A stretch of DNA of 64,000 nucleotides from IMG/VR virus record IMGVR_UViG_3300032330_001398, one strand, 5' to 3'. This DNA comes from a virus. Its lineage: Duplodnaviria; Caudoviricetes. Below, one piece after another: positions 31,584 through 62,224 of the stretch; position 1 is the first letter of the stretch, and every line of letters starts with the position of its first letter. Under the pieces are notes generated by a model. The model was not told the DNA's origin. It worked only from the letters and a program-made list of their open reading frames with translations, and made no database searches. The position numbers and the translations under genes are program-made.

Positions 31584-31610
31584 TTACATAATCCTTTGAT
31601 TTTAAAATAG

Positions 31611-31692
31611 TCGTGGATGTAGGATTCGAACCTACGAAGCTAATAGCATTTGATTTACAGTCAAACTCCTTTGACCGCTCGGAAAATCCACG
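31611..31692 (-). tRNA. tRNA-Tyr(GUA), long variable arm, C1:G72, no encoded CCA
   Basis: CGTGGAT-TT-TCCGAGCGGTCAAAGGA-G-TTTGA-CTGTAAA-TCAAA-...-GTAGG-TTCGAAT-CCTAC-ATCCACG-A. Confidence 0.93.
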
Positions 31693-42327: not shown

Positions 42328-42424
42328 CTTATCCTCCTTGATATTAATCTTGATAGTTAAGAAAAGACCCCCGAAAGTGTGCATTGTTAAGAGGCATCGG
42401 GGGATTTATCTTTTCCTTTAAATA

Positions 42425-42640: not shown

Positions 42641-42697
42641 AATATTCTCCTAAGTTAAAACTATGCCACATCCATGTGGCTCAAAACATAATACCAG

Positions 42698-43047
42698 TGG
42701 ACTAGAGGGGAGTCGAACCCCTGTCCAGAATAAATATCAATATAAACTTCTACATTATTATTCAGTTGTTATCACACTACTGACAAAGCTATCAGAATTA
42801 TCTGAATCAGATTGAGTACAATCATTATTCCTATTTATGTCTGGTAGGACTACCATATCCGATTATCGGAGTCAGCATGATTTGGTAATAAGGCTCATGC
42901 CGCCCCACTCATTACCTAATTAATTAGGCAGCGAGAGCGAGAGTTACTTCGCCAATTAACATTTTTAATCGGCTTTTATACTGGCCAACCGATCAACCAG
43001 TTAATGCAGTTTATATCTATTTTACCTGTCGATACCTTTACTAGCCC
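42698..43047 (-). ncRNA. ssrA: tmRNA
   Basis: 5' GGGCTAG-TAAAGGTATCGAC; 3' GACAGGGGTTCGACTCCCCT-CTAGTCC-A; G3:U Ala identity pair; tag ORF GEVTLALAA* at 42953-42924. Confidence 0.93.
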
Positions 43048-59719: not shown

Positions 59720-60112
59720 CTACTTCTTGAGAAAATCTTTTCGTGGACTCACGAATACTCTTCGTCCAACAGTGACCAGAGTATAATAAGTAAGATTATC
59801 GTAATTATTTGGGCCATCTGAACATCTCCAGTAGGGTGCAATTTTTGGATCATACATGAGTTCTTTCCATCCTTCTACGTTATAAGAATCGTAGGGAACG
59901 GAAGTATAGTCAGTGCAACGAATATACCCACACACATCACGCTTCTGACTAGCGAACACGCGCTGTGCTTTACGCTTTTCATTCTTAAGGATGCAATTAT
60001 ACATAACAAGACCATCTTTGGCTGGATCATGATAGACAGGAACCTGTCCAAACTTTATCTGCCAAAACTTATAATACTTACCAGCCCCAAGATGAAACCT
60101 AACGTCAAACAT
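59720..60112 (-). CDS. Hypothetical protein
   Basis: VRFHLGAG..Y..WQIK motif. Confidence 0.55.
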   Translation of the reverse strand: MFDVRFHLGAGKYYKFWQIKFGQVPVYHDPAKDGLVMYNCILKNEKRKAQRVFASQKRDVCGYIRCTDYTSVPYDSYNVEGWKELMYDPKIAPYWRCSDGPNNYDNLTYYTLVTVGRRVFVSPRKDFLKK

Positions 60113-60479
60113 TTTTAACAACCTCCACAACACAGCCCTGAGAACGAAGTTCAGATGCCATCTTCACCGCAACGTCACTTTCTGTATTGATGGAGTTCCA
60201 CCTACCACCAACATAGTCGTTGTCTGGGGTACTCCATCGACCACGTACAACATCCAACCAATTCTTGGCATCCTTCAATCCCCAACCAAGATGGGAACGG
60301 ATGATCTTGATACAAGAAACGAAGTTGTCGCATGGGACGCTATGAAGAACCATAGTGACCTTAAGTTCCCCACACTTTACTTCCAAAGCCCCAATGATGC
60401 GGTTATACATATCAACGTTGCCCTCGCTCTGAGTAGCAAGCCAAATCGCTTCACGAACCGTCATCTCAACCGTAATCAT
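60105..60479 (-). CDS. Ribosomal protein bL12 C-terminal-domain-like protein
   Basis: CIKIIRSHLGWGLKDAKNWLD...MASELRSQGCVVEV resembles IKVVR..TGLGLKEAK..L...GA.VEV. Confidence 0.65.
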   Translation of the reverse strand: MITVEMTVREAIWLATQSEGNVDMYNRIIGALEVKCGELKVTMVLHSVPCDNFVSCIKIIRSHLGWGLKDAKNWLDVVRGRWSTPDNDYVGGRWNSINTESDVAVKMASELRSQGCVVEVVKNV

Positions 60480-60508: not shown

Positions 60509-61383
60509 TTAGTTTAGTTTGTCAAGGGCTGGATAATCTTTTGGATAATGTTCTTTTGGTGGTGGTGGTTTTGGTTGTCCCTCATCTGGCATCCACCACG
60601 GAGCGTCGAAATAATCTACATTGCCGGGAGCTTCACCACAGTCAATATTGTGAATACAAAAAGGATCATTATAGTTTATTCTATATGTTCCACGCCACAC
60701 ACCAATAGGCTCACCATAATAGATGATCTTTTGACCATTAATAGGGCGACGAGGCCCAAAGAAACTAATCCATTCCATTATTTAAGTCCTTACTATGAAA
60801 TACAACTATGACACCAACAAAAGTTTTCGTGACCCCTGATATGCTCTTTCTTCATTCGTTCAATAATTTCTGGATCAGTAACATTTTTGTCTTTGATTAG
60901 ATCATCAATAGTATAAAGAGTACCATCCTCTTTATATCTACAATCATCATTTCCCAAATCATACGCATCTCGATAATACTGAACAAACATTACTTTCTCT
61001 CCTTTAGATAGATCATTTCCAACCCTCCGGCATAGGAATCTCTTGAAAGCTAGTATAGCATACCACTAGATCACTGTCAAATGGTATCCATTCTCCATCA
61101 CCATCTTTATTCCAATCGCCCCAATCGCCATCGTACCAAGTCAAGGGGATAGGAAAAGAATAATCCTTAACACAACATAGATATTGACCATTCAAAATAG
61201 GATTATCGTAATGCCAGTTCATTATATCCTCATTACAATATTTTCGTAGGCTTTAATCAGATCGATACCACTAATGTTATGCTCTGCTGCTAGGTTCATA
61301 GCTATAGTCTTAGCTGGACTCATAACCATCATGGGGTTTTTTAGAACCCTAAGAATATATACCACTGCTTCTTCTTTAGTCAT
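60509..61383 (-). other. Small hypothetical genes (60509-60778, 60793-60990, 61013-61222, ~61222-61383)
   Basis: Coupled ORFs; two begin with DUF551-like MxW.. motifs. Confidence 0.5.
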
Positions 61384-61403
61384 CTCTTCTCCTTTGTATT
61401 GTT

Positions 61404-61487
61404 ATCACACGGCTATATGGCGTTGCAACGTCGAGGCCGATCTGGCCACATATAGTTAAGGAAGGTTCTCCTTCTCATCCGTGTGAT
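61404..61487 (-). ncRNA. Unclassified ~84-nt multibranch structured RNA
   Basis: Closing ATCACACGG/CCGTGTGAT 9-bp stem, inner CTATATG/CATATAG stem, three small hairpins. Confidence 0.6.
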
Positions 61488-61498
61488 TTTATTAAACG

Positions 61499-61730
61499 TG
61501 GTGAGGACGCGATCCCCCATAGATTGGTATTGTTAGTTAACGTTAACCCCGTTAACACCACCTATCTTCGCTCAGAGGCATTCTAAGATAGATGGCTTTC
61601 AATAGGTTATCCCAACCTAGTCCAAGGCATGGACCCGCGTAGTTTGTATTGTAAAGCAGATTGGGTTGAGCCATAATCGACAGCCATTTAACCGTAGCTT
61701 CTTTGATATCATTCTGCTAGCGGCCCTCAT
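61499..61730 (-). ncRNA. Unclassified ~230-nt structured RNA
   Basis: Terminal stem plus at least five internal helices, no ORF of 60 aa or more, consensus promoter directly upstream. Confidence 0.68.
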
Positions 61731-61744
61731 CTGCTTCTTCAACT

Positions 61745-61772
61745 ATTATACCAGACGATTCTTTCCTGTCAA
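61745..61772 (-). promoter_or_regulatory. Consensus sigma70 promoter pointing into the structured RNAs
   Basis: TTGACA-GGAAAGAATCGTCTGG-TATAAT. Confidence 0.8.
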
Positions 61773-62075
61773 GTGGCGATTTTTGTATTCTTTGATGTCA
61801 CCGTTCATCACAATCTTTTCTTCTTCGTAAGGTACGGCCACACGACGATAGAATTCTTGTTTTACATTCTCAACAACGCCCGTGATCATCGCAATCTTTG
61901 CATAAGACGTACTTCCCATTACTTGCCCAATCAGCCTAGTCATACAGTAATTCAGATCGCCCAACACTGTGACCAAATCTTGATTATCAAAATCACTATG
62001 ATTAGTAATTATGTTAGCAAGATCGTCTATGGATCGGTCTAATATCTTGCGGCTTGTTTCATCAATGTACGGCAT
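61746..62075 (-). CDS. Hypothetical phage protein
   Basis: MPYI...GDLNY...ENVKQEFYRR...PYE..KI..NGD. Confidence 0.7.
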   Translation of the reverse strand: MPYIDETSRKILDRSIDDLANIITNHSDFDNQDLVTVLGDLNYCMTRLIGQVMGSTSYAKIAMITGVVENVKQEFYRRVAVPYEEEKIVMNGDIKEYKNRHLTGKNRLV

Positions 62076-62224
62076 TATATATCTCTCTCTTCTACAACTG
62101 TTGAACTTTCACAATCCATACACATAGCATTATCATATGGGCCACCAACTAGATTACCATCTTGGTCAACCCAAGCATCGTATCCTATGTTGCTGCTGCC
62201 ACACTCACTACATATTGTACTCAT
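62075..62224 (-). CDS. 49-aa zinc-ribbon protein
   Basis: Read by hand: MSTICSECGSSNI...CMDCES; its stop overlaps the next ATG. Confidence 0.55.
   Translation of the reverse strand: MSTICSECGSSNIGYDAWVDQDGNLVGGPYDNAMCMDCESSTVVEERDI

Follow-up and report, generated by a model that had tools for sequence, protein, structure and literature searches.

The window analysed here is a 64,000-nt stretch of viral DNA (Duplodnaviria; Caudoviricetes; IMG/VR record IMGVR_UViG_3300032330_001398). On its minus strand, a 362-nt gap between two small early open reading frames (ORFs) is probably occupied by a promoter-driven string of three separately folding RNA genes, here designated modules A, B and D, which would belong to the tRNA-island repertoire of large freshwater phages, with A likely to form a homodimer and B to be a non-decoding look-alike of tRNA. 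We are highly confident that all three modules are functional, structured and conserved RNAs which lie under a promoter and represent three new small families. A first-pass annotation, made from the letters of the window, had described the region as a single RNA of ~230 nt with its own promoter, a terminal stem and a tRNA-like ACCA tail. Its proposal of a non-coding, structured and partly tRNA-like phage RNA locus under a promoter has held, whereas the single RNA with that stem and tail has not, as the modules occur apart, duplicated or beside tRNAs. The parts of the locus are as follows.

61745-61772, minus strand: sigma-70-type promoter, with the -35 box TTGACA at 61772-61767, a 16-nt spacer containing TG and the -10 box TATAAT at 61750-61745
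61654-61736, minus strand: module A, an 83-nt three-way junction (covariance model R1, 100.5 bits, E = 6e-31)
61699-61715, minus strand: 17-nt apical loop of helix A-P2, AGAA-UGAUAUCA-AAGAA, with a centred 8-nt palindrome at 61711-61704; predicted intermolecular kissing site
61640-61653, minus strand: linker between A and B, UUACAAUACAAACUA, carrying AAUACAA at 61650-61644
61497-61639, minus strand: module B, a 143-nt tRNA-shaped four-way junction (covariance model R2, 118.4 bits, E = 1.5e-32)
61404-61487, minus strand: module D, a nested junction of 84 nt with AUCACACGG/CCGUGUGAU as its closing stem
61650-61644, 61400-61394 and 61491-61485, minus strand: linker copies separating the modules, the last a degenerate AAUAAAA
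61222-61383, minus strand: ORF of 53 amino acids (aa) directly downstream of the string, with the ribosome-binding site AAGGAG and its ATG at 61383

Distribution and conservation of the modules

The single-sequence fold of the 242 nt outlined by the first-pass annotation is unexceptional (z = -1.88), and the case therefore rests on comparative data. We mined IMG/VR and freshwater metagenomes for homologues and retrieved ~130 distinct versions of A, 97 of B and 14 of D, with compensatory base changes in all three. A motif scan with the 17-mer of the first hairpin loop matched 66 viral contigs, a pattern for A that is independent of the loop matched 79 viral contigs and at least 120 metagenome stretches, nearly all of them freshwater, and a motif from the second half of the region matched 19 contigs. 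Covariance models of module A (R1) and module B (R2) each find one copy in the window.

In agreement with the earlier statement that the RNA belongs to no recognized class, Rfam 15 gave no match at this locus, either in a search of the whole window at gathering thresholds or in a search of 61300-61850 at E<=10. Searches at E<=10 of homologous loci (numbered L083 and so on), namely of two tandem B copies (L100) and of A together with a further domain, C (L101), returned only noise. No match to the region was found in the INPHARED phage genomes (blastn, word size 11), and a full-text literature search with the core sequences of the modules retrieved no paper. A large IMG/VR screen has listed 8,495 unnamed candidate RNAs (PMC10690425), and A, B or D may be among them. 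The only match among 185,579 prokaryote genomes was a 20.9-kb contig (L162, JBILVZ010000050.1) binned in a Methylococcaceae metagenome-assembled genome from Lake Mendota. It carries A, a tRNA-Lys-like gene and B, and is either a clue to the host or a mis-binned phage contig.

The protein encoded upstream of the string, which belongs to the DUF6899 family, has just two, distant matches in INPHARED and 150 relatives in IMG/VR. The RNA is found at the same spot only in the two closest of these (90-92% identity), and in the other relatives the next ORF begins within ~10 nt. A remnant of that neighbouring gene was rejected as an explanation, since tblastn with the next ORFs of distant relatives finds nothing here. 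The core of A is 82-94% identical to that of the window on contigs whose DUF6899 protein is merely 47-56% identical, which points to strong purifying selection on the RNA.

Module A is a three-way junction with a palindromic loop

Module A is built from the following helices.

61736-61729 with 61661-61654, minus strand: A-P1a, AAGCAGAU/AUCUGCUU
61726-61724 with 61665-61663, minus strand: A-P1b, GGG/CCC
61723-61716 with 61698-61692, minus strand: A-P2, CCGCUAGC/GCUACGG
61681-61679 with 61672-61670, minus strand: A-P3, GUC/GGC, with a GAUUAU loop

Across 47 distinct sequences, 95.9% of the cells in this fold are paired, compared with ~40% (23-47%) in slid controls, and 61 cells show double changes, compared with 16 +/- 5 in shuffles. 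The stem A-P1 is stable and long, reaching 12 bp, and its A-P1a part covaries freely (AAGCAGAU/AUCUGCUU, CAAGUG/CGCUUG or AUACGGG/CCCGUAU), which upholds the AGCAGAU/AUCUGCU helix already noted by eye. A-P2 occurs as UGGC/GCCA, UGAC/GUCG, UGGU/ACCA or, with a compensatory G-C to A-U change in the window itself, UAGC/GCUA, and reaches 8 bp in L126. It displaces the earlier AGCUA/UGGCU pairing, GCUA being paired with UAGC. The strands at the junction (GGUUAAAUG, CGAGUAUGGC and AACCC) are almost invariant, and both of the tetramers for which a pseudoknot had been proposed, GGUU and AACC, are invariant in the homologues.

When the loop of A-P2 was left unconstrained, its central octamer in 117 distinct homologues was always UGAUAUCA, UGACGUCA or UAACGUUA, all three perfect palindromes, while the purine flanks varied freely. 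Symmetric double changes distinguish the three, and one such change affects the two neighbouring bases at the centre. These bases cannot pair with each other within one hairpin, and the symmetric changes are as expected for an intermolecular loop-loop duplex, that is, a homodimer. Self-complementarity of the loop is thus kept through compensatory changes, as in kissing-loop homodimer RNAs, and the calculated energies of the palindrome self-duplexes are -6.1 to -10.7 kcal/mol. On these sequence patterns we somewhat favour dimerization of module A.

Module B resembles a tRNA in layout

The helices of module B are listed below.

61639-61635 with 61501-61497, minus strand: B-P1, CGCGG/CCACG (consensus CGYGG/CCACG), with one C-A mismatch in the window
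61634-61631 with 61623-61620, minus strand: B-P2, GUCC/GGAC
61619-61612 with 61527-61520, minus strand: B-P3a, UAGGUUGG/CCAAUCUA
61604-61600 with 61532-61528, minus strand: B-P3b, UAUUG/CAAUA
61596-61557, minus strand: B-P5, a variable 12-bp hairpin, GCCAUCUAUCUU/AAGAUAGGUGGU
61556-61536, minus strand: B-P6, GUUAACG/CGUUAAC
61517-61503, minus strand: B-P4, a T-arm-like hairpin, GGGGAU/GUCCUC

The covariance model aligned 42 copies of B. In 25 distinct sequences the fold of 37 pairs in seven helices is 97.5% paired, compared with 34-46% in slid controls. Double changes affect 12 of the pairs and amount to 70 cells, compared with 22 +/- 5 in shuffles. B-P3a shows G-C to A-U changes in L131, L137 and L110. 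B-P3b reads CAUUAC/GUAGUG, UACUAC/GUAGUA or UAUUUC/GAAGUA elsewhere, and B-P6 CAGUGC/GCACUG or CCAACG/CGUUGG. B-P5 keeps its position while its sequence and length are free; it is absent from forms of 112 nt, and its insertions and deletions are not multiples of three. G-U pairs are frequent and strand-specific (17 G-U and 8 A-U at one pair of B-P3a, 23 G-U at one pair of B-P4), which argues for an RNA read from the minus strand and not for a DNA element.

Covariation contradicts about half of the helices drawn in the first-pass annotation. GUCCA/UGGAC (B-P2) and the 12-bp GCCAUCUAUCUU/AAGAUAGGUGGU stem (B-P5) were confirmed, and the GUUAAC-based hairpin exists, its actual pairing being GUUAACG/CGUUAAC (B-P6). 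A UAGGUU/AACCUA hairpin is incompatible with B-P3a, in which UAGGUUGG and CCAAUCUA are 100% paired in 25 sequences and change in a compensatory manner. The local pairing of UGGGGG is real, yet it forms a true hairpin, B-P4 (UGGGGG/CCUCA), and is not merely an alternative state. The supposedly single-stranded ACCA end (61502-61499) is made up of an unpaired A and the CCA with which the CCACG strand of B-P1 begins. AUGCCU had been seen to cap two hairpins, the second of which is a loop specific to the window, and of the two linkers thought to contain ACAAUAC, the second is a paired strand (B-P3b).

B is laid out like a tRNA, as a four-way junction whose closing stem resembles an acceptor stem. 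Its 5' hairpin is short, its central arm is long, a further hairpin, resembling a T-arm, lies directly against the 3' strand, and the genes lie in tRNA islands. In ~11 divergent copies the likeness extends to a 7-nt, T-loop-like loop on P4, which directly precedes the 3' strand of P1; the second copy of L100, L101, L103, L129, L134 and L137 have a P4 stem of 5 bp with a UGCGAUU, UGCGAAU or UUGGAUU loop, and L129 has a 7-bp P1 followed by U-CCA. NCCA follows B-P1 in 28 of the 97 distinct copies (~30%). The only other match of R2 in the window, a weak one (8.6 bits), is a tRNA-Tyr gene, aligned through its acceptor stem and T-arm.

Module B is nevertheless not a tRNA. No anticodon-type loop is conserved in B; a helix of ~20 bp, with a variable three-way junction at its end, takes the place of the anticodon arm, P1 measures 5-7 bp, and P4 has a 6-bp stem with a triloop in most lineages, that of the window included. 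It is not a tmRNA either: RF00023 has no match in 61300-61850, ARAGORN -m reports none in the B copies, and the sole tmRNA of the window is at 42695-43047.

The tRNA-Tyr gene of the window (31610-31692, minus strand) has an acceptor stem that begins CGUGG.../...CCACG, the same five pairs as B-P1. From sequence identity this may reflect shared ancestry or shared recognition.

Module D and the AAUACAA linkers

Module D is conserved downstream of B. Comparison of 14 distinct homologues gave 24 consensus pairs, and compensatory double changes were seen at 8 of them, as in CACACG/CGUGUG versus CAUGCG/CGCAUG. D ends 4 nt before AAUACAA (61400-61394), which is followed by AAGGAG and the ATG at 61383. 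The heptamer recurs around the modules: of 93 distinct copies of B, 59 have an exact match within 22 nt upstream (76 when a mismatch is tolerated) and 54 have one within 16 nt downstream (68 when a mismatch is tolerated), where chance would give ~0.1% for exact matches and 2-3% for those with a single mismatch. Most homologues of D have AAUACAA ahead of them as well. The first A of the heptamer completes a CCA in many lineages. Judged by this placement, AAUACAA may be the punctuation of a non-coding RNA precursor, possibly an endonuclease site.

Two broader roles for the heptamer were rejected. It is not a general processing signal flanking tRNAs, as it flanks only 2 of 498, and a window-wide, promoter-like signal is not supported by its mild enrichment on the minus strand (29 copies against 16.4 expected), mostly within genes.

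Modules A and B are separate genes and occur in tRNA islands

The genomic context of the homologues shows that A and B are separate genes. Each of 66 loci has a single A. In L103, L105, L107, L110, L112, L136, L141 and L142 the two modules share a strand and are separated by 1.3-2.9 kb, and B is duplicated in tandem in L088, L096 and L100. Among 133 distinct copies of A, 70 are followed by another conserved domain and a new promoter, 27 by AAUACAA and B, as in the window, and 25 by tRNA-Lys(UUU) within ~5 nt, a spacer of about five U residues. ARAGORN identified the homologous loci as tRNA islands. In L134 a promoter, A, tRNA-Lys, a promoter with a small ORF, tRNA-Met and B follow one another on one strand; A heads tRNA arrays in L118, L123, L125, L135, L140 and L143, and directly follows tRNA-Leu in L120 and L132.

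Several loci carry additional elements. Domain C, of ~55 nt, follows A at L101:7458-7520 and in 69 other distinct loci, and consists of a CCUAAUCC-UACG-GGAUUUGG hairpin and then ...GUAGUCAGC; after it come a new sigma-70-type promoter and a gene whose product starts MKQKP.YGEVRFHLG. The homologue of this gene in the window is an ORF of 137 aa (59720-60133, minus strand) without a Pfam match. In close relatives, extra material is present between A and B in L089:122-205, L241 and L279, that of L089 being an insert of 77 nt right after ACAAUAC, and at L087:8930-9107 a tRNA-like gene with an internal insertion and a second promoter lie between the two modules. Such material may represent further swappable modules. 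ARAGORN also called a tRNA with a four-base anticodon (gaga) at L100:6894-6968 (minus strand), ~370 nt from the two tandem B copies of this 233-kb phage contig.

Promoter, flanking ORFs and coding potential

The perfect TTGACA-N16-TATAAT promoter reported by the first-pass annotation was confirmed; it matches the consensus at 12 of 12 positions, contains an extended -10 TG, and overlaps the final codons of the DUF6899 ORF (61746-62075, minus strand; PF21840). Transcription would start near 61738, 1-2 nt ahead of A-P1. A distance of 8 nt separates the end of the -10 box from P1 both in the window and in homologues, whose promoters read TTGAC-N17-TATACT/TATAAT, so that A would be the first structure at the 5' end of the primary transcript. 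Of the 27 A copies followed by B, 24 have a promoter-like motif upstream, as do 59 of the 70 followed by domain C. No terminator-like site was found within 61200-62100, and the 53-aa ORF is therefore probably co-transcribed with the string. In L108 the same ORF directly follows module B, without module D.

Small ORFs of 26-41 codons are present in the region. The one of 37 codons exists as had been noted, with the AUG of GAUGAGGG as its start. That codon persists in only 68 of the 132 distinct homologues that could be parsed, where the ORF is 10 to 87 codons long, and the frame opened by AUGGC stops after two codons in 88 of the 132. Among ten neighbouring ORFs, Pfam searches gave DUF6899 and otherwise only sub-threshold matches, one of them to the C-terminal domain of ribosomal protein L7/L12 in an ORF of 124 aa (60108-60479, minus strand; 21.9 bits, cut-off 25.9).

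Alternative explanations

We consider it exceedingly improbable that the region is the one RNA of ~230 nt first proposed, in which UGAGGG(C)CGC would pair with GCGUCCUCA as a terminal stem, leaving a single-stranded, tRNA-like ACCA end, and the 3' strand could instead pair locally with UGGGGG, as in a switch. In the window, where A and B are adjacent, the strands of that stem are complementary, and the sequence ACCA is present. However, the bases of this stem are engaged in A-P1b and A-P2 and in B-P4, and its strands belong to separable genes: the 5' strand GGGCCGC is kept in all copies of A without a nearby B, where GGG pairs with CCC and CCGC is part of P2. L083, L087 and L144 alter the 5' strand (GAUAGCGG, GAUAAGGG) and L099 the 3' strand (CCCGA), each time uncompensated; the insert of L089, or the tRNA-like gene and second promoter of L087, splits A from B; and the CCA lies within a paired CCACG strand (99% paired in 25 sequences). 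An explanation at the level of DNA (protein-binding palindromes, an origin or a recombination site) or of small encoded peptides is likewise very improbable. The 8-bp palindrome of A would suit a dimeric DNA-binding protein, and short ORFs do exist, but the helices are kept through G-U pairs, which are A-C mismatches on the opposite strand, and covariation tracks nested RNA helices. A site on the DNA that binds a dimeric protein is a conceivable alternative to dimerization of A, which we rate lower because the palindrome is exactly centred in the loop of a covarying RNA hairpin. Coding is opposed by the absence of the 37-codon ORF's ATG from about half of the homologues, by the early stop of the AUGGC frame, by the B-P5 length changes that are not multiples of three and by the lack of any remnant of the distant relatives' neighbouring ORF. 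Nor is it at all likely that B, and possibly D as well, represents a tRNA pseudogene in decay or an insertion-interrupted tRNA without function. Its acceptor- and T-arm-like layout, the NCCA of some lineages, its location in tRNA islands and the identity of B-P1 with the start of this phage's tRNA-Tyr acceptor stem would all fit, yet 97 distinct copies keep 97.5% of the pairs with many compensatory changes, including those in the 'inserted' arm (P3b, P5 and P6), as is not expected of a pseudogene, no anticodon-type loop is conserved, and ARAGORN finds nothing at default stringency, even when introns are allowed.

A long, structured 5' untranslated leader, acting in cis on the 53-aa ORF and its neighbours as an attenuator, riboswitch or translational operator, is unlikely, though it accounts for several features of the locus: no terminator separates promoter and ORF, D ends just before AAUACAA-AAGGAG-ATG, and in A covarying stems surround invariant junctions in the manner of a riboswitch. 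Against it, A is not tied to one gene and is followed by tRNA-Lys, by another RNA domain with a new promoter, or by B, while B and D are found in other neighbourhoods and in tandem copies. No alternative terminator/anti-terminator was found, the ribosome-binding site is not sequestered, A-P1 is long and stable at up to 12 bp, L108 has the same ORF after B in the absence of D, and no known aptamer family matches.

Some observations weigh against a string of three RNA genes with a dimeric A and a tRNA-like B. Because no terminator follows the string, the modules could also serve the downstream ORFs as a long, folded 5' leader, and the independent switches among the three palindromes may number as few as two substitution events. 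NCCA does not follow B-P1 in the window, and B-P1 is short at 5-7 bp. At default settings, with or without introns, ARAGORN finds no gene in the 97 B copies, and its calls at relaxed thresholds are inconsistent; the Rfam tRNA model (RF00005) does not match B in the window or in L100 at the gathering threshold or at E<=10. The phage and its relatives are uncultured, and we infer the transcript, its ends, its stability and its processing.

Proposed mode of action

If the locus is indeed a string of RNA genes, it would be a polycistronic non-coding RNA operon transcribed by the host RNA polymerase from the consensus sigma-70 promoter, in which A, B and D would fold and evolve independently, with AAUACAA-type linkers between them. 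Module A would form the very 5' end of the primary transcript as a three-way junction with an invariant core and most likely associate into a homodimer through loop-loop (kissing) pairing of the P2-loop palindrome. In module B, an acceptor-like P1 would be stacked beside the T-arm-like P4, with a short D-like hairpin and a long elaborated arm replacing the anticodon arm. It would most likely be excised and trimmed by tRNA maturation enzymes, with RNase P acting at the 5' end, trimming at the 3' end and CCA, although, judged from its layout, we put such tRNA-style maturation at about even odds. The matured B would then persist as a stable mimic of tRNA and engage some factor that binds tRNAs. 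A role for the string RNAs as decoys or sponges is conceivable but doubtful on what the sequences suggest, and the switch, sponge and catalytic ideas of the earlier description found no direct support.

More tentatively still, module A may represent a new class of small self-associating RNA, an 83-nt junction that forms a kissing-loop dimer and heads phage tRNA and non-coding RNA operons, with the invariant junction as a binding or catalytic centre; it would be a miniature counterpart of ROOL and GOLLD that works with the B mimic. Were this so, A could capture a host factor for tRNA processing or for tRNA-targeting defence, or act on the neighbouring tRNA-Lys(UUU).

Comparison with known systems

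Phage tRNA islands have been known to contain unexplained stable RNAs since species 1 and species 2 of phage T4 were sequenced in the 1970s. These RNAs, rnaC and rnaD, of 139 and 119 nt, are the closest known analogues of the string; their roles are still unknown (PMC3014915). In T4, rnaD and rnaC lie in tandem after tRNA-Arg at the end of the tRNA cluster, and in L134 and other loci found here small structured RNAs likewise lie among the tRNA genes of an island and share their strand. The layout of rnaC parallels that of module B, with a T-arm (CCGGG-UUCGAAU-CCCGG) directly before the 3' strand of its closing stem and further long arms between the two strands. No homology was detected: with filters switched off, R2 returned only noise (<=4.1 bits) across the tRNA region of T4, its top match being a T4 tRNA-Leu gene through the acceptor stem and T-arm. 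The string belongs to uncultured freshwater phages and not to the Tevenvirinae. A sigma-70 promoter of its own, AAUACAA linkers and a predicted dimerization palindrome in one module set it apart further, as does the lack of any tRNA between the modules of the window. By comparison, then, it is an analogue of rnaC/rnaD and not a member of that group.

ROOL and GOLLD are large RNAs of phages and prophages, often found next to tRNA islands, that assemble, as RNA only, into homo-oligomers held together partly by kissing loops, with intermolecular pairs that covary (PMC12286853). They measure from ~580 to >800 nt and form cages of 8 to 14 subunits, whereas module A has 83 nt and is predicted only to dimerize. 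The locus has no Rfam match to either, and its modules, at 83-143 nt, fall short of the >500 nt of that group. By analogy, A could be a small relative in kind, with its oligomerization predicted from the loop.

The A loop also resembles that of the dimerization initiation site (DIS) of HIV-1, a hairpin loop with a central self-complementary palindrome of 6-8 nt flanked by purines. The variants of the A loop stay self-complementary (GAUAUC, GACGUC and AACGUU); the contexts are unrelated, and the resemblance is one of mechanism only, with the A dimer being a prediction.

The ROOL and GOLLD structures show that RNAs of tRNA islands can be self-assembling machines. To these the present locus contributes no fewer than three undescribed families of RNA, which are common in lake viromes and better conserved than the surrounding proteins. 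Two of the families carry concrete and inexpensive hypotheses, a palindrome-mediated dimer and an RNase P-processed tRNA mimic. Because A (83 nt) and B (143 nt) are small and their natural promoter is of the E. coli consensus type, they would be handier than ROOL or GOLLD for asking what the RNAs of tRNA islands do.

Elsewhere in the window, ~290 nt downstream of the tmRNA, the abiF RNA motif (RF03085) reaches its gathering score at 42367-42403 on the minus strand (38.3 bits against 37) and may be a phage-borne copy of an antitoxin-type RNA.

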